Source: an uncultured Chloroflexia bacterium | GTDB taxonomy: Bacteria > Chloroflexota > Limnocylindria > Limnocylindrales > CSP1-4 | NCBI GenBank assembly: GCA_963764975.1 | Contig: CAVXUF010000002.1 | Coordinates: forward strand, 75,894-139,893 | Length of the DNA: 64,000 nucleotides | Direction: 5' to 3' | Part shown: positions 6,821 through 57,521 of the stretch, in pieces | Numbering within the stretch: the stretch's first letter is position 1 | Layout: each line of letters begins with the position of its first letter | Notes under the pieces: generated by a model | What the model was told of the DNA's origin: nothing | Seen by the model: only the letters and a program-made list of their open reading frames with translations | The model's database searches: none | Made by a program: the position numbers and the translations under genes

Positions 6821-7886
6821 GCTGGCCTGGCTGGGCGGGCATCGCGGCCTCGAAGCGTCGCTGGTGCCGGCGGCTGGCATCCCGCTGCGCCGACTCGCTG
6901 CTCGATCCCTGCGCACGAGCGGGCTCGATCATCACGCGATCCTCGACCCGATCCGCCTCGGGCTGTCCATCCCGCAGGCCACGGCCATCCTCCTCCGGGA
7001 GCGACCGGCGGCGATCTTCACGACCGGCGGCTACATCGCGATCCCGGTACTCCTGGCGGCCGCGCCGCTGCGGATCCCGGTCGTCCTGTGGGACGGCAAC
7101 GTGATCCCCGGACGGTCGGTCCGGGCGACGGCGCGTCTGGCCGACGTCCTGGCCGTGTCGTTCGCGGCGACCCGTGATGCGCTCGCGACCGCGGCCCCAG
7201 GGGTCCCGTGCTACGTCACGGGCACGCCCATCCGCGACACGCGATCGATCGACCGCGGCGCCGCTCGGACGTCGCTGGACATCCCACCGGGGGAACGGGT
7301 CCTGCTCATCTTCGGGGGCTCCCAGGCGGTCCGGCGGTTCAACGCGGCCGTGTCCGGGGCCATCGAGCGGCTCGTCGAACGGGTCACCGTGATCCACGTC
7401 GCCGGTGAAGAAGGGTACGCGGGCGCCCTCGCCGACCGGGAGCGCCTGTCGGCGGAGCGACGGGCGCGCTATCGGCCGTATCCGTTCCTGCGCGACGAGA
7501 TGCTGGCCGCCCTCGCCTCGGCGGACCTGGTGGTCGGCCGCGCCGGCTCGTCGACGCTCGCCGAGGTCACGGCATTCGGCACCCCGATCGCGGTCGTCCC
7601 GTACCCGCATGCCGGCGGCCATCAGCGGGCGAACGCCCGGGTCCTGGCCGATGCCGGGGCGGCCCTGGTCATCGAGGACGAGGCGTTCGACGCCGATGCG
7701 CTGGTGATCGCCGCGCGGGTGCTCGACGACCCGGAGACGCATCTCCGCATGGCCGCCGCGGCCCGCGACCTCGGACGGCCGGCCGCGGCCGACGCCGTCG
7801 CCGATCTCGTCATCGCTGCCGCGATGCGTCTGCCACTCCCCGACGCGGCCACGATCGACCGGCGGGCGCGTGGACTGACGCCATGA
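6726..7886 (+). CDS. murG: UDP-GlcNAc:undecaprenyl-PP-MurNAc-pentapeptide GlcNAc transferase
   Basis: N-terminus MRSLIVGGGTGGHIYPALAVA is the MurG hallmark. The C-terminal half has ..GGSQA.. and ..GRAGSSTLAE.. motifs. Confidence 0.9.
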   Translation: MRSLIVGGGTGGHIYPALAVARSLSARPTAPELAWLGGHRGLEASLVPAAGIPLRRLAARSLRTSGLDHHAILDPIRLGLSIPQATAILLRERPAAIFTTGGYIAIPVLLAAAPLRIPVVLWDGNVIPGRSVRATARLADVLAVSFAATRDALATAAPGVPCYVTGTPIRDTRSIDRGAARTSLDIPPGERVLLIFGGSQAVRRFNAAVSGAIERLVERVTVIHVAGEEGYAGALADRERLSAERRARYRPYPFLRDEMLAALASADLVVGRAGSSTLAEVTAFGTPIAVVPYPHAGGHQRANARVLADAGAALVIEDEAFDADALVIAARVLDDPETHLRMAAAARDLGRPAAADAVADLVIAAAMRLPLPDAATIDRRARGLTP

Positions 7887-42201: not shown

Positions 42202-43110
42202 ATGCACCCAGGCCGGCTCCGGATCGCGCTCGCGCAGATCGCCCCGCGCCTCGGGCTGCTCGACGCCAATCTGCAACGCCACGTCATCCTCCTCGAGGAG
42301 GCGCGAACTGGTGGCGCGGACCTGGTCGTCTTCCCGGAACTGGGGTTGACCGGCTACCAGCTGCAGGACCTCGCCGGCGAGGTGGCGATGCGCCTCGACG
42401 ATCCGCGTCTCGCGTCGCTGGCCGCGGCCACCCCCGGGATGTCGGCCGTCGTGTCATTCGTCGAAGAGTCGATCGATCACCGGTTGTTCATCGCGGCCGC
42501 CCTGCTCGAGGACGGGGAGATCCGGCACGTCCACCGCAAGCTGTTCCTGCCCACCTACGGGCTCTTCGACGAGCGACGGTTCTTCGCCCCGGGGGATCGG
42601 CTGCGGGCCGTGCCGTCACGGTCCGGCATCGGGCTCGGGCTGGCGATCTGCGAGGACTTCTGGCATCTCATGGTGCCCCAGGTCCTCGGGCTCGACGGCG
42701 CGCAGATCCTGATCAACGTGTCGTCGTCGCCGGGCCGCGATCTGGCGGCCACCAACGAGGTCGGCCTGGGGACCGCGACGTCGTGGCGGACGCTCATGCG
42801 GACGTACGCGCAGCTGACCACTTCCTTCGTCGTGTTCTGCAATCGTGTCGGCGTGGAGGAATCGATCTCGTTCTGGGGCGGCTCGGAGGTCATCGGCCCG
42901 AATGGCGCGACGGTGTTCGGTGCTCCGCTGTACGACGAGGGCCTGTTCATGGCGGACATCGCGACCGGTGACCTGCGCCGGGAGCGGATCGCGCTGCCGC
43001 TGTTGCGCGACGAACGCCCGGAGCTGCACGTGCGCGAACTGGACCGCATCGTGAGCGAGCGCGCCGGGTTCGTGGCCGACACGACCGATGAGCCGGAGGT
43101 CGGACGATGA
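42202..43110 (+). CDS. Carbon-nitrogen hydrolase (nitrilase superfamily), probable glutaminase partner of NadE
   Basis: Glu-Lys-Cys triad contexts VVFPELGLTGY, HRKLFLPTYG and GLAICEDFWH. Its stop overlaps the nadE start (ATGA). Confidence 0.8.
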   Translation: MHPGRLRIALAQIAPRLGLLDANLQRHVILLEEARTGGADLVVFPELGLTGYQLQDLAGEVAMRLDDPRLASLAAATPGMSAVVSFVEESIDHRLFIAAALLEDGEIRHVHRKLFLPTYGLFDERRFFAPGDRLRAVPSRSGIGLGLAICEDFWHLMVPQVLGLDGAQILINVSSSPGRDLAATNEVGLGTATSWRTLMRTYAQLTTSFVVFCNRVGVEESISFWGGSEVIGPNGATVFGAPLYDEGLFMADIATGDLRRERIALPLLRDERPELHVRELDRIVSERAGFVADTTDEPEVGR

Positions 43111-43994
43111 CCGACATCGGCGCGGACCCGGGCGCGGACCCGGGCGCCGCCTTCGAGCTGCCGTCGGAACTCGCGATCGATACGGACGTCGCGCGCCGGA
43201 TCATCAGCGACTTCATCCGCGGCCAGCTGGGCCAGGCCGGGTTCGAGCGGGCGGTCCTGGGGCTGTCGGGCGGGATCGATTCGGGGCTGGTCGCCTATCT
43301 CGTCGCCGAGGCCATCGGCCCGGAGCGACTCCTGTGTGTGCTGATGCCGTACCGGACGTCATCGCCGGCGTCGCGGACAGACGCCGAGACGATCGTGGCC
43401 GCCCTCGGGACGAATTCGACCGTCGTCGAGATCACGCCCATGGTCGACGGCTATTTCGCGTCGTTCCCTGACGCGACGCCGCTGCGCCGCGGCAATCTTG
43501 CCGCCCGCCAGCGGATGGCCGTCCTCTACGACCACTCGGTCACGTTCGGCGGGCTCGTGGTCGGGACCGGCAACAAGACCGAGGCGCTGATCGGCTACAC
43601 CACGCTCTTCGGCGACTCCGCGTGCGCCTTCAACCCGATCGGGGACCTGTACAAGAGCCAGGTCCGTCAACTTGCGGTCGCGGTCGGGGTCCCCGATGCC
43701 GTCGTGCGCAAGGCGCCCTCAGCCGACCTGTGGCCGGGTCAGACCGACGAGGACGAGGGTGGGTTCGACTATCCGTCCCTGGACCGGCTCCTGTTCTGGC
43801 GCGTGGACAAGCGCCGGTCCACCGATGAGCTCGTCGCCATGGGGTTCGACGCAGCGCAGATCGCCCGTGTGGACCGGATGATCGCCACCTCGGAATTCAA
43901 GCGCCAGGTGCCGCCGATCGCCAAGCTCGGTCCCCGCACGGCCGGGGTGGACTACCTGTATCCGCGTCGTCGGCCGGGATCGGCGCGAGAGTGA
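43107..43994 (+). CDS. nadE: NAD+ synthetase, synthetase-domain-only form
   Basis: PP-loop LGLSGGIDSGLVAYL, ..GTGNKTE...GY.T.FGD.., ..PSADLWPGQTDE.. Confidence 0.9.
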   Translation: MTDIGADPGADPGAAFELPSELAIDTDVARRIISDFIRGQLGQAGFERAVLGLSGGIDSGLVAYLVAEAIGPERLLCVLMPYRTSSPASRTDAETIVAALGTNSTVVEITPMVDGYFASFPDATPLRRGNLAARQRMAVLYDHSVTFGGLVVGTGNKTEALIGYTTLFGDSACAFNPIGDLYKSQVRQLAVAVGVPDAVVRKAPSADLWPGQTDEDEGGFDYPSLDRLLFWRVDKRRSTDELVAMGFDAAQIARVDRMIATSEFKRQVPPIAKLGPRTAGVDYLYPRRRPGSARE

Positions 43995-44848
43995 ACAGCG
44001 GCGGCGGGACGCTGTACGTCGTCGCCACGCCGATCGGCAACCTGGCCGATGTCACGCTCCGCGCGATCGAGGTCCTCGGCGCCGTGCCGCTCATCGCCGC
44101 GGAAGACACGCGGCACACCGCGCGGCTGCTCGCTCGACATGGGATCCGGACGTCGATGACGAGCTTCCACGCGCGCAGCGGCCCGGCTCGGCTGGAGTCT
44201 CTCCTCGCGCACCTGCGCGCGGGGACGGATCTCGCCCTCGTGACCGACGCGGGCACGCCCGGCGTGAGTGACCCGGGGGCGGAGCTCGTGGCGGCGTGGG
44301 CGGCGGAGGGGGGCGTCGTCGTCCCGCTCCCGGGCGCATCAGCGGTCCTGGCGGCCGTGGCCGCGGCCGGCGTCGCTGGTCCGCGATGGGCGTTCGAGGG
44401 GTTCCTCCCGCGCACCGGTCGTGAGCGTCGCGAGCGGCTCGAGCGGATCGCGGCCGACCCGCGCGGCGCGGTGCTGTTCGAGGCCCCGGGCCGCGTGGCC
44501 GCGACCCTCCGCGACCTGGCCACCGCATGCGGGCCATCGCGGCGCGGGGCGGTGTGCCGGGAACTGACCAAGATCCACGAGGAGATCGTCCGCGACGAGC
44601 TCGGGGCGCTTGCCGCGGCGGCGGACGATGGCGCGATCCCCGCGCGTGGGGAGTTCGTGCTGGTCGTGGGCATGCGCGAGTCGTCCGAACCGTCGGCAGC
44701 CGACGCCGAGGCGCGTCTGACAGCGGCGCGCGCCGCTGTCGAGCGCCTCGTCGGATCGGGGGTCGCTCGTGGGGACGCCGCTCGGCGAGTGGCGGCTGAC
44801 ACGGGCTTGCCGCGGCGACGCCTCTACGATCCGGCCCCATCGCGGTAG
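43991..44848 (+). CDS. rsmI: 16S rRNA (cytidine1402-2'-O)-methyltransferase
   Basis: GTLYVVATPIGNLADVTLRAIEVL....LIAAEDTRHT..; tetrapyrrole-methylase fold. Confidence 0.9.
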   Translation: MNSGGGTLYVVATPIGNLADVTLRAIEVLGAVPLIAAEDTRHTARLLARHGIRTSMTSFHARSGPARLESLLAHLRAGTDLALVTDAGTPGVSDPGAELVAAWAAEGGVVVPLPGASAVLAAVAAAGVAGPRWAFEGFLPRTGRERRERLERIAADPRGAVLFEAPGRVAATLRDLATACGPSRRGAVCRELTKIHEEIVRDELGALAAAADDGAIPARGEFVLVVGMRESSEPSAADAEARLTAARAAVERLVGSGVARGDAARRVAADTGLPRRRLYDPAPSR

Positions 44849-44859
44849 CATCCGACTCG

Positions 44860-46725
44860 ATGCCCGACACGATCGGCCGCTGGGCGCCGTCCGGCGAAAG
44901 ACCCCGATTCGAGCGGCTGCGTGATCGTGCCCGGCGTCCCATCGACATCGTGGCCCTGGGAAGCTTGCTCACGGAGCAAGTCGTCCACATCGCCCACCAT
45001 CCGTCAGCGGGTGGGCAAGGGTCGATCCCCATCCGCTCGATGACGGCCTCGATCGGTGGAGGCGCGGCAAACGTCGCCGCGATCGGGGCCCGGCTGGGCG
45101 CGCGCACGATGCTGGTCAGCGCGATCGGGGACGGCCCGCGCGCCCACGAGATCCGCGATCGACTGGCGGACGCCGGCGTCGACGTCTCGCTTCTCGCGAT
45201 CCGCCCGGGTTGCGACGCGGACCTCCTGGTCCTGCTGTGCGACGTCGCAGGGGATTGGGTCGCGCTGGAGCAACTCGATCCGGACCTTCGGATGAGACAG
45301 GACGACTTGCCGGGACGCGAGATGCTGACGAAGGCGACGTGGCTACATGTCGATGGCTACGCGTCCTTCACGGCGGGCGATCCGGCGCTGGTCGACGCCG
45401 CTGTCGAGCGCGCGCGAGCGGCCGGATGTCTCGTCTCGGTCGATGCGGCGACCCCGTCCGCCACCGCGGAGCCCGGGTACATCCGGTCCCTGTTCGCCCG
45501 GGCCGATGTCGTCTTCGCCAATATCGTCGAAGCGTCGGCGCTCACATCGATCGCGCCCGAGGACATCGATGGGATGCTCACCGCGCTCCTTGACCTCGGC
45601 CCCGCGGTGGTGGTCCTCAAGGCCGGTGGTGCGGGGTCCATCGTCGCCTCAGCGGAGGGTCGAGCCCGGATCGCGGCTATTCCGACCGTCGTCATCGACA
45701 CTCTGGCGGCCGGCGATGCCTATGTCGCCGCGACGCTCGTCGGACTCGCGGAGGGTCGGACGCTCGTGGACGCCGCGCGGCGCGGCGCTGCCGCAGGGTC
45801 GGTGGCCTGTCGGACGCCAGGTTCCCAGGGTGGCATCTTCGATGCCGCCGCTGCCGAGGCCATGTCAGCGGCGCCCGGACCGGACGACGTCGAGGACCGC
45901 GTCATCCCGCTCGGGATGGCCCGATCGCCGGTTCGAGTGCGGCCGGTAGCTGATCTACGGGGCTTGCCGGATGGCGAGCTGCCGCGGTTCGCCCTGGTCC
46001 CGGGGAGCGAACGACGCGTGGAGCAGATCGCAGAGCGCCTCGCCGACGTACGCGTCATCGCCCACGATCGCGAGTTCCTGGCCATCACCGGCGACCTTGA
46101 TGGGATCCCGATGATGGCCTGCTCGACGGGGATCGGCGGGCACGGGGTCAGCCTGGTCGTCGACGCGCTGGGAGCCCGCGGCGCCGACACGTTCATCCGG
46201 GTGGGCGTCACTGGCGCGCTTCAGGACCGGATGCGCACCGGAGATCTGGTCGTCGCGTCGGCGGCCGTGCGGCTCGACGGCACCAGCGAGTACTACGCGG
46301 ATCTCGCCTACCCGGCGGTCGCGGACCATGCCGTCACGGTTGCCCTCGTGGCCGCCGCCCAGTCAAGGCAGGCGGTCGTCCATGTCGGGATCGGGTTCAC
46401 GGCATCGTCCTTCTACGCCGGGGAGGGGATCCCTGCGTTCCGCGGGTTCCGGTCGGCGTCGATGGCCGGGATCGAGGCCGAGATGCGGGAGATCGGGGTT
46501 CTCGACCAGGACACCGAGACTGCGACGCTGTTCACGGTCGCCCGCCGTCGCGGCTGGCGGGCCGGTCGGGTCAACGCGGTGGTGGACGACCGGACGGCCG
46601 CCGGCTACGACCCGACGGGAGAGCCGCTCGCCATCGAGACCGCGCTTGAGGCGGTCCGACGGCTCACGGCCTGGGACGAGGCCGGGCGCACGTGGCGTGC
46701 CGGTCAGCCTGGGGCGGAACGATGA
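44860..46725 (+). CDS. Fusion protein: N-terminal PfkB-family sugar/nucleoside kinase + C-terminal divergent PNP/UDP-family nucleoside phosphorylase domain
   Basis: Single uninterrupted 621-codon ORF. The N-terminal half has IGGGAANVA and DTLAAGDAY (PfkB signatures). The C-terminal half has CSTGIGGHG, IRVGVTGAL and DQDTETATLF, which align with STGIGCPS, IRVGTSGA and CSEMEAATLY of the neighbouring phosphorylases. Confidence 0.75.
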   Translation: MPDTIGRWAPSGERPRFERLRDRARRPIDIVALGSLLTEQVVHIAHHPSAGGQGSIPIRSMTASIGGGAANVAAIGARLGARTMLVSAIGDGPRAHEIRDRLADAGVDVSLLAIRPGCDADLLVLLCDVAGDWVALEQLDPDLRMRQDDLPGREMLTKATWLHVDGYASFTAGDPALVDAAVERARAAGCLVSVDAATPSATAEPGYIRSLFARADVVFANIVEASALTSIAPEDIDGMLTALLDLGPAVVVLKAGGAGSIVASAEGRARIAAIPTVVIDTLAAGDAYVAATLVGLAEGRTLVDAARRGAAAGSVACRTPGSQGGIFDAAAAEAMSAAPGPDDVEDRVIPLGMARSPVRVRPVADLRGLPDGELPRFALVPGSERRVEQIAERLADVRVIAHDREFLAITGDLDGIPMMACSTGIGGHGVSLVVDALGARGADTFIRVGVTGALQDRMRTGDLVVASAAVRLDGTSEYYADLAYPAVADHAVTVALVAAAQSRQAVVHVGIGFTASSFYAGEGIPAFRGFRSASMAGIEAEMREIGVLDQDTETATLFTVARRRGWRAGRVNAVVDDRTAAGYDPTGEPLAIETALEAVRRLTAWDEAGRTWRAGQPGAER

Positions 46726-47561
46726 CGGATCGCGACTTCGTCCATCGCGGGTTCGGCGGGGCCCTCCGACCCGGGGACATCGCGCCGTTGGTCGTGCTGG
46801 CGGCCGATCGCGAGACGGTTCGGTCGTTGACGGCCGCCTGGACCGACGCCCGGCGCGTGGCGGACCACTACGCCTTCGAGGTGTGGGCCGGACGGGTCGG
46901 CGAGGTCGCGCTCGCGGCCTGTTCGACCGGAACGGGGTCCCCGGGGGCCGCGATCGCGATCGAGGAACTCGCCGGACTCGGTGCCCGAACGCTCGTGGGG
47001 ATCGGGGCCACCCGAGCGCCGCTCGGTGACGGTCCCGTCGGGCGGATCATCATCGCCGATGGTGCGGTTCGCGGCGACACTGCGAGCGCCGGTTATGCCC
47101 GCGAAGGCGTGCCGGCCACGCCGGACGTCGAGGTCGTACTGGCCGCGGAGGTCGCGGCTCGCGGTACCGGGGTGGTCATCGTGCACGACGTCGTGGCGGA
47201 CCTCGACGCCGCGGCTCACGCGACAGGCGGGCGGCTCGCGGCCGGGGCGCCGCGGTCCCGCGCGATCGCGGCCACCATCCGGGCGACCGGGGCCATCCCT
47301 GTCGATGGCTCTCCGGCGACGCTGCTCGTGATCGGCGCCATCCACGGTCTCCGTACGGGGTTCATCGGCGCCGATCCATGGCGACCGGACGGGACCCCGG
47401 ATCCCGAGGGCCTACGCCACGCCGCCATGATCGCAACGACGACGCTCCTGACGCTCGATGCCTGGGATCGCGGTCGGGATGGGGTGCCTACCTCGTTCGC
47501 GGAACGGATGGCCGCCATGCCACCGCAAGGCGGGCATCGGACCCAGCCGACCGGCAGCTGA
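46722..47561 (+). CDS. Degenerate PNP/UDP-fold protein (phosphorylase-like, key motifs lost)
   Basis: CSTGTGSPGAAIAIEEL and VGIGATRA retain the fold signature, but the GDPxR phosphate motif and the E-M-E motif are absent. ATGA overlap with the fusion gene. Confidence 0.6.
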   Translation: MTDRDFVHRGFGGALRPGDIAPLVVLAADRETVRSLTAAWTDARRVADHYAFEVWAGRVGEVALAACSTGTGSPGAAIAIEELAGLGARTLVGIGATRAPLGDGPVGRIIIADGAVRGDTASAGYAREGVPATPDVEVVLAAEVAARGTGVVIVHDVVADLDAAAHATGGRLAAGAPRSRAIAATIRATGAIPVDGSPATLLVIGAIHGLRTGFIGADPWRPDGTPDPEGLRHAAMIATTTLLTLDAWDRGRDGVPTSFAERMAAMPPQGGHRTQPTGS

Positions 47562-47606: not shown

Positions 47607-47635
47607 TTGAAGGCAACCTGAAAAACCACTAGCAA
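47607..47635 (+). promoter_or_regulatory. Candidate promoter in an AT-rich patch (TTGAAG-17-TAGCAA)
   Basis: Locally AT-rich ~40-bp island in an otherwise GC-rich context, ~200 nt upstream of the ECF S-component ATG. Confidence 0.3.
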
Positions 47636-47835
47636 ATTGTGATGTGGCCCGCTACCGTACCGTCAGGCGCGGTCGGCCAGGGCCGCCGCGTTCGTGCACC
47701 GGGACTGCGGCGGAGAGCCCAACTCGCTGTCGTAATCCTCGGATGGGTCGCGATCACCCGGATGCACACGAGATCATTCGGCGATCTCGTCCAGAGGCGG
47801 CGAGACGCCTGTGCAGAGGGAGGTTCGGAACGACC

Positions 47836-48534
47836 ATGACAGCGGCCTCAGTCACCCGCGCGGCATCGCGGATCCCGTTGACGTACGTCGTCACGTTGGT
47901 CCCCGTGGCGGCGGCCCTCAACATCGTCGGCAGCACCATCAACAACGCGCTGAAGCTCCCGACGTTCCTTGACATGATCGGCACCGCCGTGGCCGCGATC
48001 GTGCTGGGACCCTGGTGGGGTGCCCTCGTCGGCGTCATCACGAACGTCGGCGGCTCGTTCATCAACGGACCGATCGGGATCCCGTTCGCGCTGGCCAACG
48101 TCGCCGGCGCCCTCATCTGGGGCTACGGCATCCGGTCGTGGGGTCTCGGATCGAACCTGCCCAAGTTCTTCCTGCTCAATATCATCGTGGCGCTCGTCGT
48201 GTCCGCCGTCGCGGCCCCGATCGTGATCTTCGTGTTCGCTGGGGCCACGGGTCACTCGTCCGATGCCATCACGGCAGCCTTCGCACTGGCCGGCAATGAC
48301 CTGATCACCTCGGTGTTCGCGTCCAACGTCATCGTGTCCCTCGCCGACAAGATCATCGCGGGCTTCGTGGCCCTCTCGATCATCGCGGCGCTCCCGGCCA
48401 ACCTCACGTCCGGGCTGACGTTGCCCGCGGCGACGGGGATGCGCGGCGTGATGCTCGCCGTGGGCGGCATCGTCATCGGCGTCGTGCTGGTGCTGGTGTA
48501 CGTGCTCATCCTGGCGCCCGCGCCGGCCGCCTGA
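47836..48534 (+). CDS. ECF transporter substrate-specific (S) component, specificity unknown
   Basis: 232-aa six-helix-type membrane protein (..LNIVGSTINNALKLPTFLDMIGTAVAAIVLGPWWGALVG..) followed by ecfA-ecfA'-ecfT. GAGGGAGG upstream of ATG 47836. Confidence 0.75.
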   Translation: MTAASVTRAASRIPLTYVVTLVPVAAALNIVGSTINNALKLPTFLDMIGTAVAAIVLGPWWGALVGVITNVGGSFINGPIGIPFALANVAGALIWGYGIRSWGLGSNLPKFFLLNIIVALVVSAVAAPIVIFVFAGATGHSSDAITAAFALAGNDLITSVFASNVIVSLADKIIAGFVALSIIAALPANLTSGLTLPAATGMRGVMLAVGGIVIGVVLVLVYVLILAPAPAA

Positions 48535-48886: not shown

Positions 48887-49729
48887 ATGGCCGATGAGCC
48901 GATCATCTCCATCGCCGACATGGGCTTCACGTATGCCCAGGCAGAACGCCCGGCCCTGAGCGGTATCGATCTCGAGATCCATCGTGGCGAGTACGTGGCG
49001 ATCATGGGTCTCAACGGTGCCGGCAAGACGACGCTCGGACTCTGCCTGAACGGGATCATCCCGCACATGCTCATGGGCGAGCAGACCGGGTCCGTCCGTG
49101 TCGACGGCAAGGATCCGAGCACGGTCGTCGTCCGGGAGATGGCCCGGACGGTCGGCATGGTCTTCGATAACCCCGAATTCCAGATGAGCCAGATCACGGC
49201 CGCCGAAGAGGTCGCTCTGGGGCTGGAGAACCTTGGAGTCCCGTCCGACGAGATGCCGGCCCGGATCGCGGCAGCGTTGCAGCTCGTGGGCCTCGAGGGG
49301 TTCGAGGAGCGGGCCCCGATGGGCCTGTCGGGCGGGCAGCAGCAGCGACTCGCCATCGCCTCGGTGCTGGTGATGCGGCCCTCGATCCTGTTCATGGACG
49401 AGCCCACGTCGAACCTCGACCCCCTCGGCAAGGACGACATCTTCGAGATCGCCCGCCATCTCAACCGCGAGGAGGGGATGACCGTCATCGTCGCGGAGCA
49501 CGAGGTCGAGGTCCTCGCTGAATACGCCGACCGGGTCGTCATCCTGCATGAGGGACGGATCGCGATGCAGGGCCCCCCGGCTGAGGTGTTGCGTCGCGTT
49601 GACGAGCTCGATGCCCTCGGTCTCCGCGCGCCGCAGGTCACCCAGTTCGCCCACGCCCTGTCCGGCTCGACGCCGGACCTGCCCGTGACACTCGACGCCA
49701 CCATCGGGTGGCTGGGATCGCGAGCATGA
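48887..49729 (+). CDS. ecfA1: ECF transporter ATPase component
   Basis: GLNGAGKTT, LSGGQQQR, ILFMDEPTSNLD. Confidence 0.9.
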   Translation: MADEPIISIADMGFTYAQAERPALSGIDLEIHRGEYVAIMGLNGAGKTTLGLCLNGIIPHMLMGEQTGSVRVDGKDPSTVVVREMARTVGMVFDNPEFQMSQITAAEEVALGLENLGVPSDEMPARIAAALQLVGLEGFEERAPMGLSGGQQQRLAIASVLVMRPSILFMDEPTSNLDPLGKDDIFEIARHLNREEGMTVIVAEHEVEVLAEYADRVVILHEGRIAMQGPPAEVLRRVDELDALGLRAPQVTQFAHALSGSTPDLPVTLDATIGWLGSRA

Positions 49730-50544
49730 CCGGACCCGCGATGATCAGCGTGGACGAGGCGCGGTACGTCTACCCGCACGGGAACGTCGTCGCGCTCGAG
49801 GGCCTGTCGATCGAGATCGGCTCGGGCGAACTCGTCGGCGTCATGGGCCAGAACGGATCCGGCAAGACCACGTTCACCAAACTCCTCAACGGCCTGTTGA
49901 AGCCGACGTCCGGCCGGGTGGTCGTGGACGGTCGCGATACGGCCGAGCACAGCGTCCAGGAGATGGCCGGTCACATCGGGTATGTCTTTCAGAACCCGAA
50001 CCACCAGCTGTTTGCGTCCACGGTGGCCGAGGAACTGGCATTCGGGCCGAGGAACATCGGGTGTTCGCCCGAGGAGGTCGACGAGCGGGTGGCGGATGCC
50101 GTGGCGTTCTTCGGTCTCGAGGCCATCCTGGGACTGCACCCGTACCGGATCAGCTTCCCGCTCCGCAAGGTCGTCGGAATCGCCTCGATCTACACGATGC
50201 GACCCAAGGTCTTCATCCTCGACGAGCCGACCACCGGCCAGGATCACCGGACCACGAGCGTCATCGACCGCCTGATCGTGCGTCTCGCGGATCGCGGGGA
50301 TACCGTCGTTTGCGTGTCGCACGACATGCCGCTCATCGCCCACGTCGCCCGTCGGGCGATCGTGATGTGGAACGGGCAACTCATCGCGGACGGCACGCCG
50401 CGTGAGGTGTTCGCCGATACGGCGGCGATGGAGCGCACGCACCTCACGCCGCCTCAGATCACCCGGTTGTCGACCCGGATGCCGTCGCGGGCGGGACGAC
50501 CGGCCGCGCTGTCCGTTGCCGAACTGGTGGAGGAGACTCGCTGA
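49726..50544 (+). CDS. ecfA2: ECF transporter ATPase component
   Basis: GQNGSGKTT, Walker B VFILDEPTTGQD, H-loop VSHD. The signature position is degenerate (ISFPLRKVVGIA). ATGA overlap with ecfA1. Confidence 0.88.
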   Translation: MTGPAMISVDEARYVYPHGNVVALEGLSIEIGSGELVGVMGQNGSGKTTFTKLLNGLLKPTSGRVVVDGRDTAEHSVQEMAGHIGYVFQNPNHQLFASTVAEELAFGPRNIGCSPEEVDERVADAVAFFGLEAILGLHPYRISFPLRKVVGIASIYTMRPKVFILDEPTTGQDHRTTSVIDRLIVRLADRGDTVVCVSHDMPLIAHVARRAIVMWNGQLIADGTPREVFADTAAMERTHLTPPQITRLSTRMPSRAGRPAALSVAELVEETR

Positions 50545-51437
50545 TGCAAGGCGTCAACGTCTCGGTCACGCATGTCCGCGGAACGTCCTGGCTCCACCGA
50601 CTGAACCCGATCTCCAAGCTCGCCTGGGTGCTCGCCGTCATCCTGTTCGCGTTCTCGTCGTACAACCCGTTCCCGCTCTTCGCGATCGCGATCGGCGGGT
50701 TCCTCCTCGGCGTCTCGGCGGGGATCGCGCGCCCCCTGCTACGGATCCTGATCGTCTTCGCGCCCGTCACCGCGTCGATGATCGTCATCCAGACCATGGC
50801 GCCGGCGACGTGCTCGAACACATGCACCGCGGCGGCCCAGCTCGGGCCCTTCACGCTCTACCAAGAGGGGATGTCGCACAGCCTCTCGCTCGTCTCGCGT
50901 GTCCTCGCGATGGAGATCATCGCGCTCGGCGTCCTGATGACGACGCACCCGTCGGACTTGTTCGCGGCCTTCGCCAAGCTGCGCGTGCCGTACATCCTCA
51001 ACTTCATGGTGTCGATGACCCTCCAGCTGATCCCGGTCCTGCAGCGCGAGGTCTCGGTCGTCCTGTCGGCGCAGAAGTCGCGGGGCATGAAGAGCAAGGG
51101 CTTCGGGTCGGTCGTGCCGTCGTTCGTGCCCGTGTTCGCGGGCGCGTTCGAACGCGTCCAGCAACTGTCGATCAGCCTGGAATCACGCGCGTTCGGGTCG
51201 GCCGGGTCCAAGACCTCGTATCGCCAGGTCCGGTTCGGGCCGATCGATGCCGCGATCGCGATCGTCGGACTCGCCGCGGGAGCGATCGGGGTGTATCTCG
51301 GGCTGACATTGTGGAGCGTCGAGCTGACACCCTCGCTCGTGCTGCCCGTCGCGCTGACCCTCGTGGTCTTCCTGCTGGCGGCGGTGATGTTCTTTGCCGT
51401 CCTGGCCGCCGCGATCCTGGCGATCGCGCGGGCCTGA
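50544..51437 (+). CDS. ecfT: ECF transporter transmembrane (T) component, CbiQ family
   Basis: ..SWLHRLNPISKL.. N-terminus, polytopic, ..ARAFG.. coupling-helix motif (SRAFGS); TGATG junction. Confidence 0.85.
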   Translation: MQGVNVSVTHVRGTSWLHRLNPISKLAWVLAVILFAFSSYNPFPLFAIAIGGFLLGVSAGIARPLLRILIVFAPVTASMIVIQTMAPATCSNTCTAAAQLGPFTLYQEGMSHSLSLVSRVLAMEIIALGVLMTTHPSDLFAAFAKLRVPYILNFMVSMTLQLIPVLQREVSVVLSAQKSRGMKSKGFGSVVPSFVPVFAGAFERVQQLSISLESRAFGSAGSKTSYRQVRFGPIDAAIAIVGLAAGAIGVYLGLTLWSVELTPSLVLPVALTLVVFLLAAVMFFAVLAAAILAIARA

Positions 51438-51441
51438 CCCG

Positions 51442-52215
51442 ATGACGATCCAGGCCGCGCAGCACCACATCGCGCTGCGCCGCGGCGACGTGGGTCGGTA
51501 CGTGCTGCTGCCCGGCGACCCGGGACGGGTCGAGACGATCGCCCGCCATTTCGACGATCCGGTGTTCGTCGCCGCGAACCGCGAGTACGTGACGTGGACC
51601 GGCACGCTCGACGGTGTGCCCGTGGCCTGCACATCGACCGGGATCGGTTGTCCATCGACCGCGATCGCCGTGGAGGAGCTCGTCGCGATCGGTGCCGACA
51701 CACTGATCCGGGTCGGGACGTCCGGAGCGATCCAGCCCGACATCGCCACCGGCGAACTGGGGATCATCACGGGCGCGATCCGCGACGAAGGCACGAGCCA
51801 CCACTACCTGCCGGCCGAATTCCCCGCGGTCGCCGACATCGACGTCACGGCCGCCCTGCGCGCCGGCGCCGTCGCGACCGGCCAACCATACCGCCTCGGG
51901 ATCGCCCAGTCGAAGGACTCGTTCTACGGCCAGCATGCCCCCGACCGCATGCCGGTGGGTCCCGAGCTTCGTCGGCGCTGGGCAGCCTGGACCGCCGGAG
52001 GGGCGCTGTGCTCCGAGATGGAGGCCGCGACGCTCTATGTCGTGGCGTCGACGCTCCGGGTGCGGGCGGGTGGCGTGATGCTCATCTTCGGCAACCTCGG
52101 GGGCAGGCAGCTGACGCCCGAGGAACGGGCCGCGGGCGACATCGAGCGCGCGATCGAGGCGGCGATCGCCGGTCTGCGCGTGCTGATCGCCGCGGATCGC
52201 GACGCGGCGCGATGA
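51442..52215 (+). CDS. Uridine-phosphorylase-like nucleoside phosphorylase (PNP/UDP family), copy 1
   Basis: LLPGDPGR, TSTGIGCPSTAIAVEEL, IRVGTSGA, SKDSFYG, CSEMEAATLY. Confidence 0.85.
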   Translation: MTIQAAQHHIALRRGDVGRYVLLPGDPGRVETIARHFDDPVFVAANREYVTWTGTLDGVPVACTSTGIGCPSTAIAVEELVAIGADTLIRVGTSGAIQPDIATGELGIITGAIRDEGTSHHYLPAEFPAVADIDVTAALRAGAVATGQPYRLGIAQSKDSFYGQHAPDRMPVGPELRRRWAAWTAGGALCSEMEAATLYVVASTLRVRAGGVMLIFGNLGGRQLTPEERAAGDIERAIEAAIAGLRVLIAADRDAAR

Positions 52216-52982
52216 ACGACGACGTCATGCACCACATCGCGCTGCGCCGCGGCGATGTCGGGCGGTACGTGCTGCTCCCCGGCGACCCCGGCCGGTGCGA
52301 ACGCATCGCCACGCGCTTCGACGATGCGAGGCTCGTCGCCAGGCATCGCGAGTACGAGACGTGGACCGGCACGCTCGGTGGTGTCCCGGTCTCGGTGACC
52401 TCCACGGGGATCGGCTGCCCGTCGACGGCGATCGCCGTCGAGGAACTGATCATGTGCGGCGCCGACACGTTCATCCGCGTGGGGACTGCGGGCGGGATGC
52501 AGCCCGGCATGACCACGGGCGAACTCGCCAACGTGACGGCCGCCATCCGCGACGAGGGCACGACCGAGCACTACCTGCCCATGGCGTTCCCCGCGATCGC
52601 GGACCTCGACGTCGTCCTCGCGCTGCGTGAGGCCGGTCGGCGTACGGGTGCCACGGTCCGCGAGGGCATCTCGCAGTCCAAGGATTCCTTCTACGGGGAG
52701 ATCGAACCGGGCCGGATGCCTGTCCGAGACCGGCTCGAGGAGCGCTGGCAGGCATTCATCGCCGGCGGCGCGATCTGCTCCGAGATGGAGGCCGCGGCGA
52801 TCTTCATCATCGCCTCGATCCATCGCGTGCGGGCCGGCGGCCTCATGGCGTGCGTGGGCAACCCGGACCTCACGCCGGCGGAGGTCGAGGCGTCGATGGC
52901 CACCTTCGATCTCGACGAGGTCATCGATACCGCCGTGGAAGGGCTCCGCGTCCTCATCGAGCGTGATAGCGCGAGGTCCTGA
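52212..52982 (+). CDS. Uridine-phosphorylase-like nucleoside phosphorylase (PNP/UDP family), copy 2
   Basis: Same motif set (LLPGDPGR, TSTGIGCPSTAIAVEEL, IRVGTAGG, SKDSFYG, CSEMEAAAIF); ATGA overlap with copy 1. Confidence 0.85.
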   Translation: MNDDVMHHIALRRGDVGRYVLLPGDPGRCERIATRFDDARLVARHREYETWTGTLGGVPVSVTSTGIGCPSTAIAVEELIMCGADTFIRVGTAGGMQPGMTTGELANVTAAIRDEGTTEHYLPMAFPAIADLDVVLALREAGRRTGATVREGISQSKDSFYGEIEPGRMPVRDRLEERWQAFIAGGAICSEMEAAAIFIIASIHRVRAGGLMACVGNPDLTPAEVEASMATFDLDEVIDTAVEGLRVLIERDSARS

Positions 52983-54223
52983 TCGCCATCGACGACGACA
53001 TCCCGTTCGATCCGGTCGATCCGCGCTTCATCGCGAATCCCTATCCCGCGTATGCCCGTGTTCGCGAGTCGACGGCGGTCTGGCACCCCGACGGCGACCA
53101 CCTCTGGTACCTGACCCGCCACGCCGACGTCCACGCGGCCTTCCGCGACCGTCGCCTCGGGTCGAACTTCCTCCACCGCTATACGCCCGAGGAGCTGGGG
53201 CTGGCGCCGGGCATCCCGGTCTGGCGCGACCCGCGCTGGGAGGACTTCGCCGCGTTCGAGCGCTGGGAGCTGCTCAACCTCGAGCCGCCGGTCCACACGC
53301 GGTTGCGTCGGCTCGTCACCGAGGCGTTCACGCCCCGGACCGTCGAAGGGATGCGGACGAGCATCGTCGAGCGGGCTCGAGCGCTGCTGGCACCGGGACG
53401 CGAGGCCGGGTCCATCGATCTGGTCAACGACTACGCCCAGCACTTCTCGCTCGGCATCATCTGCGATCTCATCGGCGTCGCACCGGACGATCGCGAGACG
53501 ATCAAGCGCCTGTCGGACGATACGGTGGCGATGTACGAGCCGGCCCCGTCCGACGCACAGCGGATCGCCTCGAATGCGGCCGCCGGCGACTTCCGCCGCT
53601 ATCTGATCGACGTCATCGCCGTCCGGCGGCGTCGACCAGGCGACGACCTCCTGACCGCGCTCATCGACGCCACGGTGGACGGCGAGCGGCTGACCGACGA
53701 CCAGATCGTGTCGACCGCGATGGTCCTGCTGATGGCCGGCCACGAGGCCACGGTCAACGCGACCACGAACGGCATTGCCGCGCTGGCCGCGGACCCGGAG
53801 CAGTGGCGCCTCATCCGTCGCGGCGAGGTCACCCCCAGGGCCGCGCTCGAGGAGATGCTGCGCTACGACCCGCCGCTCCAGTGGTTCGAGCGCTGGGTGC
53901 TCGACGATGGGTTCCGTGTCGGCGACGTCGAGATCCCGGTGGGGTCGCGGGTCGCCCTCGTGCTCGCGGCCGCGAACCGGGACCCGCGCAAATACGACCG
54001 ACCGGACCGGTTCGACATCCGTCGGGCCGACACGACCCACCTGTCGTTCGGTGGCGGGATCCACTTCTGCATCGGCGCCCCGCTCGCCCGACTGGAGCTG
54101 GAGACGACCCTCACCGAGCTGGCACGATCCGAGGAGGAGCTGGTGATCATCCCGCCGACGGTCCGACGCCCGACCTTCCAGTTCCGCGGCTACGAGCGCC
54201 TCGAGATCGCGCTCTCGCGCTGA
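52979..54223 (+). CDS. Cytochrome P450 (start codon non-canonical or unresolved)
   Basis: I-helix LLMAGHEATVNA, ExxR EMLRYDPP, heme loop FGGGIHFCIGAPLA. The P450-like N-terminus (..DIPFDPVDPRFIANPYPAYARVRE..) begins right after an in-frame TAG at 52967. The first in-frame ATG/GTG/TTG is only at 53303, so CTG 52979 (CTGA overlap with the upstream stop) is proposed. Confidence 0.8.
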   Translation: MIAIDDDIPFDPVDPRFIANPYPAYARVRESTAVWHPDGDHLWYLTRHADVHAAFRDRRLGSNFLHRYTPEELGLAPGIPVWRDPRWEDFAAFERWELLNLEPPVHTRLRRLVTEAFTPRTVEGMRTSIVERARALLAPGREAGSIDLVNDYAQHFSLGIICDLIGVAPDDRETIKRLSDDTVAMYEPAPSDAQRIASNAAAGDFRRYLIDVIAVRRRRPGDDLLTALIDATVDGERLTDDQIVSTAMVLLMAGHEATVNATTNGIAALAADPEQWRLIRRGEVTPRAALEEMLRYDPPLQWFERWVLDDGFRVGDVEIPVGSRVALVLAAANRDPRKYDRPDRFDIRRADTTHLSFGGGIHFCIGAPLARLELETTLTELARSEEELVIIPPTVRRPTFQFRGYERLEIALSR

Positions 54224-55420: not shown

Positions 55421-56416
55421 CTAGTACATCGTCGTGCGCGTCAGGTGGTGCGGCCAGAAGGTCGCGTGATACGTCTTCCAGAGCCGGTAGTCGATCTGCG
55501 GGATCACCAGCTGGCGGTCGGCAGGTCGGCGATCGTTGATCGCGCTGGTCAGCAGGGCGGTGGCGTACACCGTGTGGGCGCGCAACTCGATCTCGTCGAG
55601 GCTGTCCCGCTCGATCATGACCCCGCCGTTGATCCGGGACTCGAGGTCATCGGTGTACTCGGTGATGCCCATCAGGCGCAGTGCCACCGGCACGATGTAG
55701 TCCGCGAACGCGGTCATCCGTGACAGGTCGCGGATGCCCGGTTGGCCGAGGTGGACCCAGGTGGCGTGCAGCGACCACAGGCACAGCTGGGCGAGCTTGT
55801 AGAACTGGACGCGATGGCCGTCGTAGACGCTGCTGTCCTCGAAGCGCGGGAAGTCCGCCAGCAGGCGTTCGAGCATCCCGTTGCCGTCCGCGTACATCGC
55901 CCGGTCGCATGTGGCCGCCCAACGATGGAAGCGGCCACCGAAGCGATCGACGAGGGTCGACCCCATGGTATTGAGGATCTCCGCGCGTTCGTCGAGCATC
56001 GGCATCTCGATGGTCCCGGCGAAGATCGCGGCGAGGTCGTTGCGGGTCACGGTCGCGAGCCACTCGCCGTCGAAGATGGGCTGCCCCGCGCTCCACGCGC
56101 GATGCCAGCAGGCGAGCTTGGCTTCCGAGTCCACGTACCGACGACCCTGGTAGTCCACCTCGAATTTGACCGACGTCGCGAAATCGGTGAAAGCGAAGTT
56201 GAGCGCCGACTCGAGCAACACGAGATCGGTCAGGACGTCGGGGTCCTGGCCGAAGTCGAAGAGGAACGATCCGTCGTTGAGACCGAATTCCTCGTAGGCC
56301 ATCCACCCGGCGACGCGCTGGATCCCTTCGTCCGAGGTGCGGACGTTCCGCGAGGCCTCGATCACCGGCAGCGTCGATGACAGCACCTGACTGTCCCATC
56401 GGTCGATCGCGTGCAT
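55421..56416 (-). CDS. DUF2419 / queuosine-salvage (Qng1-like) family protein
   Basis: ..VQFYKLAQLCLWSLH.., ..FADYIVPVALRLMGI..Y...L...I.....I...S..EIELRAHTVYA.., C-terminal ..IDYRLW......HH.TRT..Y. These parallel the conserved blocks of the family as I remember them. GGAGGG lies 3 nt before ATG 56416; the longer ORF to 57460 is antisense to rbsK. Confidence 0.72.
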   Translation of the reverse strand: MHAIDRWDSQVLSSTLPVIEASRNVRTSDEGIQRVAGWMAYEEFGLNDGSFLFDFGQDPDVLTDLVLLESALNFAFTDFATSVKFEVDYQGRRYVDSEAKLACWHRAWSAGQPIFDGEWLATVTRNDLAAIFAGTIEMPMLDERAEILNTMGSTLVDRFGGRFHRWAATCDRAMYADGNGMLERLLADFPRFEDSSVYDGHRVQFYKLAQLCLWSLHATWVHLGQPGIRDLSRMTAFADYIVPVALRLMGITEYTDDLESRINGGVMIERDSLDEIELRAHTVYATALLTSAINDRRPADRQLVIPQIDYRLWKTYHATFWPHHLTRTTMY

Positions 56417-56587
56417 GAACCCTCCGTACAGGCCGGACCGCCGGCCACTCCGGGCCGCCGGCCACATCGCCGACGACCGCCTCACGATACGGGAGCGCGG
56501 AGGTCCCGGCCGGGCGAGCGTGCAGCCGGTTTGCGGCCGGCGTCCCCGGACCGGCACCATGGAACCTTCAGCGACGCAGGAGGGCAT

Positions 56588-57521
56588 GTGACGGATCGAC
56601 CGGGGATCGTCGTCGTCGGAAGCACGATGATCGACCTCATCGCCTACGCGGACCGGCTGCCGGACGACGGCGAGACGGTCGTGGGGAGCGCGTTCCAGTC
56701 CGGGTTCGGGGGCAAGGGGGCGAACCAGGCGGTGGCGGCAGCCCGCTTCGGCGCCGAGGTCGCGATGGTCAACGCCGTCGGCGATGACGACTACGGGTCC
56801 GCCACGATCGGCAACTTCGAGCGCGAGGGGATCGCCACCGACGATGTCATCCGCGTGTCCCGGGTCATCCGGCGTGGCGCCGATCTGGGTGGACGGGCGG
56901 GGGAGCAACCGGATCATCATCGTGCCCGGCGCGAACCTCGCGGTGCCGCCGGACCTGGCGACTGCGGCCGTCTCGCGGCGACGCCCGGCGGTGGTCATCG
57001 GGCAGTTCGAGATCCCGCAGGCCGTGACCGCGGCCGGGTTCGCCGCCGGCCGGGCTGTCGGGGCGATCACGATCCTCAATCCAGCCCCGGCCGCGGCCAT
57101 CGAATCGTCGCTGCTCGCGGTCACAGACTGGCTGGTCCCCAACGAGACCGAGTTCGCGCTCCTCGCCGGGCACCCACTCGGCGACGATCCCGCTGCGGAG
57201 GAGCGGTCCATCACGGCCTTTGCGGCCGTGGTCGGGACGTCGGTCGTGGTCACGCTGGGTGCCCGCGGCGTGGCGATCCTGCCGCTCGGCGGGTCGCTCG
57301 TACGGGTGCCGGCCCCGGTCGTCGACGCGGTGGACACGACCGGCGCCGGCGATGCCTTTGTCGGCGCGTTCGCGGTGGGGCTCGCGATGGGCTGGACGCC
57401 AGAGCGCGCCGCGCACCTCGGCTGTCTGGCCGCCTCGGACAGCGTGACCCGGCCGGGCACCCAGCTGTCCTATCCCGATCGAGACCGGGCGGCCGATCTG
57501 CTGGCCACCGCCGTCGCATAG
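56588..57521 (+). pseudogene. rbsK: Ribokinase, reading frame interrupted by one extra base (pseudogene or assembly indel)
   Basis: The N-terminal part (GTG 56588 after AGGAGGG; ..VVVGSTMIDL.., GGKGANQAVAAA) is in frame 2. The remainder (..SSGVAPIWVDGRGSNRIIIVPGAN.., NETE, VDTTGAGDAFVGAF) is in frame 0. The switch is at the CCCGGG run 56859..56864. Total length is 3n+1. Confidence 0.75.

Follow-up and report, generated by a model that had tools for sequence, protein, structure and literature searches.

A PfkB kinase fused to a divergent nucleoside phosphorylase in Chloroflexia, and a candidate bacterial route from nucleosides to ribose-1,5-bisphosphate

In the genome of an uncultured Chloroflexia bacterium, a single open reading frame (ORF) of 621 amino acids (aa) joins a PfkB-type kinase to a divergent nucleoside phosphorylase, here named PNP-A. 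It lies at 44860..46725 on the forward (+) strand of the window, the whole 64,000-nucleotide stretch of contig CAVXUF010000002.1 that was analyzed, and it is followed by a degenerate phosphorylase paralog, PNP-B. The fusion is a lineage-restricted read-through, the covalent form of a partnership between two enzymes whose genes are separate and adjacent in most relatives. For the partnership itself we tentatively favor nucleoside phosphorolysis followed by 5-phosphorylation of the ribose-1-phosphate (R1P), which would make it a bacterial analogue of a characterized haloarchaeal operon, and our confidence in this falls a little short of even. The proposal is built on the fusion, the folds of its two halves, the catalytic residues that they retain, a conserved operon, and the IF-2B-family neighbors that recur beside it. 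From these we infer the substrates, the order of the reactions, a hetero-oligomer of the two phosphorylases, and any channeling.

The fusion ORF starts with ATG in the ORF list, and is supported by Pfam and by the third-position GC content of the coding frame. Its kinase domain (aa 1-342, 44860..45885), defined by Pfam, motifs, and the structure model, matches PfkB (PF00294) at aa 53-324 with an E-value of 7.9e-41 and 140.8 bits (gathering score 25.8). The PNP-A domain (aa 365-621, 45952..46722), to which Pfam, residue alignment, and Foldseek assign the uridine phosphorylase fold, matches PNP_UDP_1 (PF01048) at aa 376-585 with an E-value of 1.6e-28 and 100.1 bits (gathering score 25.1). Between them is an inter-domain linker (aa 343-364, 45886..45951) that is predicted to be disordered, with a predicted local distance difference test score (pLDDT) below 50. 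The AlphaFold2 model of the whole protein, made from a 74-sequence alignment, has a mean pLDDT of 87.5 and contains two well-folded domains separated by the low-confidence 343-364 segment. Foldseek aligns the C-terminal domain to solved uridine phosphorylases with template modeling (TM) scores of 0.85-0.88 and 36-40% identity, and found no PDB chain spanning both domains. A first-pass annotation made from the letters alone had claimed a PNP/UDP fold for the C-terminal half, and the Pfam score and these structural matches agree. All the motifs that it quoted are present: GGGAANVA at 66-73, DTLAAGD at 280-286, the linker ..AAAAEAMSAAPGPDDVEDR.., PGSERR at 381-386, STGIGGHG at 422-429, and QDTE at 550-553. 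The forms cited there as canonical (PGDPGR, STGIGCPS, and EME) do occur in two downstream paralogs at 51442-52215 and 52212-52982.

The in-frame union of the two domains, also claimed at first pass, is real. In a window of approximately 70% GC, the fusion reading frame has a third-position GC of 0.76-0.92 throughout, junction included, and this unbroken coding signal speaks against an assembly or sequencing error having merged two separate genes. It had been advised that the linker region (45850..45960) be checked for a missed stop or indel. Logan contigs from four public runs (two studies, P1 and P2) span 45390-46911 with zero indels and zero stops, and the linker differs in them at codon 364 alone (GCT to CCG). 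The contigs from two of these runs (X1 and X6) have Nextera-type adapter ends, which points to short-read libraries. JGI, ENA/SPAdes, and NCBI metagenome-assembled genome (MAG) assemblies also carry the fusion independently, with linkers of differing length that are always in frame. What could be held in favor of an artifact is that a related long-read locus (L003) has its fusion gene broken by frameshifts, and that close relatives with unfused genes exist. On the mapping of reads and contigs and on the independent assemblies, we rejected an artifact, whose probability we consider negligible.

This domain architecture is very rare. Among 5.8 billion proteins, a word-seeded search recovered five further full-length fusions of 61-64% identity, all with precomputed PfkB and PNP_UDP_1 domains. 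HMMER, run over the full set of 1.84 billion 50%-identity representatives, gave 14,602 matches; one representative (P0006) covers both domains, and the remaining matches among the best 150 are single-domain only. With L005 included, the distinct intact fusions number seven; they are 61-84% identical, come from Chloroflexia MAGs, and all fall into one 50%-identity cluster. Within the species-representative genome collection, the fusion is present in two “uncultured Chloroflexia” MAGs. As the first-pass annotation had supposed, no characterized example came to light, and the literature searches returned no description of a PfkB-PNP fusion (PF01048 + PF00294) or of its bacterial operon. Other PfkB + PNP architectures were sought among the long matches, in which the partner is never PfkB. 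The longer PNP-type matches P0116, P0056, P0086, and P0114 have a uridine-phosphorylase-like domain fused to IPPT (IPP transferase, MiaA-like), HAD hydrolase, PPK2, and His_biosynth domains. The copy in L003 (8001-10454) is split over frames 3, 1, 2, and 3, on a contig that is probably long-read and whose neighboring genes are fragmented too. The 409-aa protein P0008, “PfkB-only”, was considered as an unfused orthologue and rejected, being a frameshift product or a pseudogene from L003.

The relatives of the fusion suggest how it arose. A profile of the kinase half retrieves single-domain kinases of up to 64% identity. The kinase stop and the PNP-A start share an ATGA in L010 and L013, and in L098 there is a 4-nt overlap between the called genes, so a single frameshift is enough to fuse the kinase to PNP-A. 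The linkers of the fusion orthologues vary in both length and sequence while the frame is always kept, and in the P0002 group the linker retains remnants of the PNP-A N-terminus (“SHARRV”, versus “PPHARRL” in the unfused P0252). In a rough neighbor-joining tree built from the kinase domains, fused forms are interspersed with unfused ones; either fusion and fission have occurred more than once, or the tree lacks resolution. Since close relatives use the same two proteins as separate polypeptides, the fusion alone is no evidence of new chemistry. The earlier idea that it suggests a changed chemistry is thus not supported, and what happened is that a pre-existing pair of adjacent genes became covalently linked.

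The kinase half shares its fold and all catalytic motifs with ribokinase (RbsK) and the PfkB sugar kinases: GG at 66-67, NxxE at 221-224, and DTLAAGD at 280-286 with the catalytic Asp286, all invariant in the fusions and in their unfused relatives. The first-pass annotation had singled out DTLAAGD as unusual, but the motif is normal for ribokinases, and the solved ribokinase 6znx reads DTTAAGDAF at the aligned position. Unlike ribokinase, the fusion kinase has a family-specific N-terminal extension with an invariant Arg26, and its ribose-ligand positions are changed. These ligands, Asn14, Asp16, and Lys43 in E. coli ribokinase, correspond to Leu37, Glu39, and Gly68 (Gly or Cys in the family). 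It also scores far below every equivalog cut-off. Its best NCBIfam matches are to IolC (95 bits), ribokinase (86 bits), and the haloarchaeal ATP-dependent R1P kinase (74 bits; 74-105 bits for the related kinases), and the ribokinase equivalogs give 86 bits against a cut-off of 299.65 (TIGR02152) and 65 against 341 (NF008353).

The residues of PNP-A are given in E. coli uridine phosphorylase (Udp, or UP) numbering throughout, cross-checked by HMMER alignment to PDB 7q1i and 1k3f. PNP-A resembles the E. coli-type enzyme (PDB 1k3f and 1rxc) in its fold and in keeping the equivalents of Gly26, Arg30 (R386), Arg48 (R404), Arg91 (R447), Glu198 (E553), and Arg223 (R578). The phosphate-binding Arg30 and Arg91 and the ribose-binding Glu198 are invariant in the aligned PNP-A members. 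The window protein also has the phosphate ligand Arg48 and the uracil-binding Arg223, neither of which is conserved across the family. Unlike Udp, PNP-A has Ser in place of Asp27 (S383), Val in place of Thr94 (V450), Gln-Asp-Thr in place of Tyr195-Glu-Met (hence DTE for EME), and Asp-Asp in place of Val221-Asn222 (D576-D577). Its FYAGEG loop, the model's one low-confidence loop, is without equivalents of the uracil-binding Gln166 and Arg168. The first-pass annotation was therefore right that residues canonical in the neighboring paralogs are substituted, and two secondary phosphate ligands and the uracil-recognition residues are indeed changed. The phosphate and ribose sites are not replaced wholesale, since Arg30, Arg91, and Glu198 are kept. 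Nor are the substitutions a consequence of the fusion, an explanation that we rejected because they are shared by unfused proteins of the PNP-A family. Approximately 95 of the 120 homologue clusters that best match the PNP-A profile have the signature S27, V94, E/Q166, WD[TSN]E, and D221; in these, position 48 is mostly Tyr or His and position 223 mostly Pro, and almost all are single-domain proteins. The same list contains 19 Thermococcus-type uridine phosphorylases (43-44% identity) with canonical D27, R48, S94, Q166, R168, EME, and R223. The uridine phosphorylase models are not reached by PNP-A (TIGR01718, 204.8 against 280.3; NF008383, 179.8 against 262), and the AMP nucleosidase models NF005500 and TIGR01717 are matched weakly (41 bits against 264). 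When PNP-A is aligned with E. coli purine nucleoside phosphorylase (DeoD, with its known active-site numbering confirmed), its Asp221 takes the position of the catalytic Asp204, and this points to a purine-type substrate. From its sequence, the substrate of PNP-A would most likely be a purine nucleoside rather than uridine.

PNP-B (46722..47561, +) is identified by a Pfam PNP_UDP_1 match (E-value 7e-7), by orthology, and by its residue table. Its ATG overlaps the stop codon of the fusion (ATGA), and the two genes are translationally coupled. It has lost the equivalents of Arg30 (Thr in the window, Thr or Glu in the lineage), Arg91 (Gly), and Glu198 (Ser), and keeps an N-terminal FVHRGFGG motif, which holds the His8 equivalent, together with Tyr at position 48. 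Every fusion locus nevertheless keeps it as an intact and conserved ORF, and H..FGG, Tyr48, CS.G.G, GLR.G, and WD are invariant across nine orthologues. In both UP and PNP of E. coli, each active site is completed by the other subunit of the dimer, which contributes its N-terminal His and its Arg48. By analogy with these partner-completed sites, PNP-B is probably a non-catalytic structural partner that completes the site of PNP-A. As the PNP-B site is dead, the N-terminus of PNP-A would be dispensable, and so free to act as a linker.

The three proteins belong to a conserved operon. The order PfkB kinase, PNP-A, PNP-B is found in L010, L011/L012, L013-15, L016, L097, L098, L099, and L102/L103, and the kinase is adjacent to a phosphorylase in all eight unfused locus groups that show its downstream gene. 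BLASTP pairs the C-terminal domain of the fusion with PNP-A as its orthologue (69% identity to L010, 53% to L013, and 52% to L011), and the product of 46722-47561 with PNP-B (50, 38, and 34% identity to the same loci, in that order). Within the fused lineage, L004, L100, and L101 retain the order LOG, fusion, PNP-B, and PNP-B adjoins the fusion in L001, L002, L004, L005, L100, and L101. Upstream there is usually a GntR- or LacI-type regulator with a Bmp/ABC/BPD_transp_2 transporter, a type of ABC transporter that imports nucleosides, and a LOG-like gene of the TIGR00725 family is usual in the operons. Genes of the IF-2B family adjoin the module in three independent loci: L011 (kinase, cupin, PNP-A, PNP-B, IF-2B), L017 (kinase, IF-2B), and L102, where a pseudouridine-5'-phosphate glycosidase and a cytidine deaminase come after two IF-2B genes. 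Among NCBIfam models, the IF-2B proteins match the ribose-1,5-bisphosphate (R15P) isomerase TIGR00511 best, at 88-163 bits for a cut-off of 314, and they score 43-91 bits with the MtnA equivalog TIGR00512. The known substrates of the IF-2B isomerase family are 5-substituted ribose-1-phosphates, and such neighbors argue for phosphorolysis, not hydrolysis, and for 5-phosphorylation. A metagenome scan with the kinase alignment, whose patterns were generic PfkB motifs, returned 80 loci, with L016 and L017 the only members of the family.

Several of these loci have further features. In L102 (1-15090), a super-operon places two PfkB/PNP/PNP modules, a LOG-like gene, a 117-aa cupin, two IF-2B genes, the pseudouridine-5'-phosphate glycosidase, and the cytidine deaminase all behind one Bmp ABC transporter. 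The large nucleoside-catabolism super-operon of L097 (1-11642) adds an ADP-ribosylglycohydrolase and a second PfkB. The small cupin (117-119 aa) recurs between kinase and PNP-A in the IF-2B-bearing loci (L011, 11035-11394; L102, 9626-9979; L103, 1471-1824). It has Cupin_2, GPI-type, and MannoseP_isomerase-type matches of varying strength, with no NCBIfam match for the two that were scanned, and it may provide an additional sugar-phosphate isomerase step.

A mechanism can be proposed by comparison with the haloarchaeal system. PNP-A, probably within a hetero-oligomer with the catalytically dead PNP-B, would cleave an imported nucleoside with phosphate to give the base and R1P. The PfkB domain would then use ATP to phosphorylate the 5-OH of R1P, yielding R15P, and the IF-2B-family isomerase encoded alongside in some relatives would turn R15P into ribulose-1,5-bisphosphate (RuBP). 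Together these steps would form the entry module of a bacterial route of nucleoside catabolism of the pentose-bisphosphate type. The characterized haloarchaeal operon is made up of a guanosine phosphorylase (“Urdpase1”, annotated as a uridine phosphorylase), a PfkB ATP-R1P kinase, and an R15P isomerase (PMC9700705). The likeness lies in the pairing of a PfkB kinase with a “uridine-phosphorylase-like” enzyme of the NP-I fold, in the IF-2B isomerase that stands beside the pair in some loci, and in a phosphorylase that is mis-annotated as a uridine phosphorylase without being uridine-specific (as judged here from the sequence). The present module differs in being bacterial (Chloroflexia and other phyla), and its kinases reach 74-81 bits for a cut-off of 330, the comparison being by profile score. 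It also has a second, degenerate phosphorylase paralog and comes with a LOG-like gene and an attached nucleoside ABC or energy-coupling factor (ECF) transporter; no RuBP phosphatase or aldolase is seen, and in the window lineage the kinase and phosphorylase form one polypeptide. A tblastn search of plasmids for the haloarchaeal Urdpase1 yielded nothing but udp genes of bacteria and a Rhizobium locus beside deoC that is unrelated. The pentose bisphosphate pathway of Thermococcus kodakarensis, with its phosphorylases TK1479, TK1482, and TK1895, the ADP-dependent R1P kinase TK2029, an R15P isomerase, and Rubisco, is similar in that several phosphorylases feed one R1P kinase. The Thermococcus “uridine phosphorylases” are also the closest named relatives of PNP-A, with a shared C-terminal “WD..K” tail, although they keep the canonical residues listed above; the T. 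kodakarensis kinase is ADP-dependent and only distantly similar (E-value 3.9e-8).

Phosphorolysis followed by R1P phosphorylation is preferred because the haloarchaeal operon contains the same three families, the IF-2B neighbors recur, and the phosphate-binding arginines are kept. In addition, the several phosphorylase paralogs, the additional uridine-phosphorylase-like genes of the window, and the cytidine deaminase of L102 fit a scheme in which several R1P producers serve one R1P kinase. A number of observations weigh against it. In PNP-A, two phosphate ligands are lost, with Thr94 replaced by Val and Arg48 variable in the family, and phosphorolysis is consequently not certain. For the kinase, the IolC and ribokinase models do as well as or better than the haloarchaeal R1P kinase model, of which the 74 bits obtained are far from the cut-off of 330. 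The IF-2B neighbors lie below the curated R15P isomerase cut-off, most related loci are without IF-2B nearby, and the 64-kb window holds no IF-2B, LOG-like, or cupin homologue and no other downstream pathway gene. A more elaborate version, in which an obligate PNP-A/PNP-B hetero-hexamer carries three tethered kinase domains, receives only the N-terminal His motif from PNP-B, and channels R1P (or uses nucleoside monophosphates, NMPs, directly) to R15P, strikes us as unlikely.

The same two enzymes could also work in the opposite order, in line with the nucleotide substrate that the first-pass annotation had offered as an example, PfkB acting as a nucleoside 5'-kinase and PNP-A as an NMP phosphorylase of the NP-I fold that releases the base and R15P. 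The end product would be identical, so the IF-2B neighbors fit equally well, and the altered phosphate/ribose pocket of PNP-A (V94, T197, D196) can be read in this sense. The NP-I fold can bind nucleotides, as in the Salmonella UP-UMP complex 1y1q and as suggested by the weak matches to AMP nucleosidase models, and the R1P kinase of P. calidifontis also takes cytidine and uridine (PMC9700705). The PNP-A signature, on the other hand, shows no conserved extra basic residue for a 5'-phosphate, and the His8 equivalent is conserved in unfused PNP-A and in PNP-B. In E. coli UP, this His binds the 5'-OH. AMP nucleosidase and the archaeal NMP (AMP) phosphorylase both cleave the glycosidic bond of a nucleotide, and the latter yields R15P; the known NMP phosphorylases of the archaeal pathway are nevertheless of the unrelated NP-II fold. 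Several base-specific phosphorylase paralogs per kinase, accompanied by uridine-phosphorylase-like genes and a cytidine deaminase, are also better suited to cleavage at the nucleoside level. Nucleotide-level cleavage by PNP-A is therefore less favored than phosphorolysis first and R1P phosphorylation second, and we regard the kinase-first order as distinctly unlikely.

The two activities might not be sequential at all: the kinase would salvage a nucleoside to its NMP while the phosphorylase degraded the same nucleoside, and the fusion would be a neutral read-through without channeling. Such an uncoupled branch point would agree with the interleaving of fused and unfused forms among close relatives, with the one frameshift at the ATGA overlap that suffices to fuse the genes, and with a linker that is long, variable, and disordered, and a LOG-like neighbor could convert the NMP to ribose-5-phosphate. 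It accounts less well for the tight and widely conserved kinase / PNP-A / PNP-B order and the IF-2B association, which favor sequential steps, or for a fusion kept over a range of 61-84% sequence identity with both active sites intact, and its probability appears low. Lastly, PNP-A could be a hydrolase that frees ribose for a PfkB ribokinase, giving ribose-5-phosphate. Hydrolases are known in the NP-I fold, two phosphate ligands of PNP-A are lost (Thr94 to Val, and Arg48, which is variable), and ribokinase models are among the best matches of the kinase family. Yet all aligned PNP-A members have the equivalents of Arg30 and Arg91, the ribose-ligand positions of E. coli ribokinase (Asn14, Asp16, Lys43) are Leu, Glu, and Gly/Cys, and the IF-2B neighbors require a derivative of R1P, all of which makes a nucleosidase with a ribokinase very unlikely. 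Salvage of 5'-methylthioadenosine or 5'-deoxyadenosine (MtnA-type) was set aside, as its phosphorylase route needs no kinase, PfkB kinases are generally known to act on primary hydroxyls, and the IF-2B proteins score better as R15P isomerases than with the MtnA equivalog.

The surroundings of the fusion in the window differ from those in the related loci. There and in L001 the LOG gene has been lost, leaving 11 nt between the upstream RsmI-type methyltransferase gene and the fusion. At 1924-3369 of L100, an NAD synthase and an RsmI-type methylase are called as one 481-aa product, an apparent fusion or a frameshift, whose counterparts are separate in the window (43107-43994 and 43991-44848). 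An ECF transporter takes the place of the Bmp transporter and is, from its sequence family, the probable importer for the module. Its S component (47836..48534, +) is assigned to the CD3073 family by NCBIfam NF045596 (E-value 4.8e-31, below cut-off), and a literature search on CD3073 found nothing relevant. The ATG at 47836 is the likely start of this gene, the GTG at 47644 in the ORF list being over-extended. An 82% identical orthologue is found in L101, approximately 1.6 kb downstream of the fusion and PNP-B, after two FGE-sulfatase genes. The energizing module (48887..51437, +), recognized by two Pfam ABC_tran matches and one to CbiQ, is composed of two ABC ATPases (48887-49729 and 49708-50544) and a T component (50544-51437). 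It is followed by two uridine-phosphorylase-like paralogs (51442..52982, +; Pfam and TIGR01718), UP1 (51442-52215) and UP2 (52212-52982), which overlap by ATGA. Their TIGR01718 scores are 289 and 263 bits, the first of which exceeds the cut-off of 280.3, and they have the canonical phosphate and ribose residues D27, R30, R48, R91, T94, and EME; their alignment at Gln166/Arg168 is ambiguous.

The gene for the S component is preceded by a conserved 5' leader (47628..47835, +) that shares blocks with L101 at 7601-7805. The leader is approximately 210 nt long, and its blocks are shared although the fusion proteins of the two loci have only 61% identity. The leader folds with a minimum free energy of -97.9 kcal/mol (z -2.26), and a two-sequence consensus has 46 pairs with one compensatory change. 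An Rfam search for a riboswitch gave no match even at E<=1, and the leader is possibly an orphan riboswitch or another type of leader. Two further ORFs are of note. On the reverse (-) strand, a 679-aa ORF (55421-57460) matches Q_salvage (queuosine salvage, Qng1-type) over its C-terminal 270 aa (E-value 4e-48); its N-terminal 400 aa have no Pfam match and overlap a + strand ORF (56784-57521) of equally high third-position GC, and it is probably over-extended. A link between the module and queuosine salvage, prompted by this gene approximately 9 kb away on the opposite strand, was discarded because no linkage is conserved in related loci. The 306-aa ORF at 53303-54223 (+) has a match to the cytochrome P450 profile that is confined to the C-terminal end of the profile (positions 326-428 of 462), and is possibly a truncated gene or one with a mis-set start. 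Rubisco was not found in the window.

To the logic of such a pathway, which is known from archaea, these results add a set of new variants: the module found in bacteria, the signature residues of PNP-A, the degenerate PNP-B, and the fusion. In E. coli, an R1P kinase activity has been proposed, and the responsible gene was never identified (PMC9700705). If the hetero-hexamer described above were real, it would constitute a widespread and undescribed bacterial route that carries nucleoside carbon through pentose bisphosphates independently of Rubisco, and direct use of NMPs, if true, would add an activity not previously known for the NP-I fold. The fusion also draws attention to PNP-B as a likely pseudo-enzyme partner and corrects the automatic “uridine phosphorylase” label of these proteins. 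It serves as a “Rosetta stone” that ties an unassigned subfamily of PfkB kinases to an unassigned and mis-annotated subfamily of “uridine phosphorylases”, which comprises approximately 95 clusters from Chloroflexota, Anaerolineae, and Hyphomicrobiales. In combination with the R15P-isomerase-like neighbors, it makes nucleoside catabolism through R15P, so far shown in archaea only, testable in bacteria.

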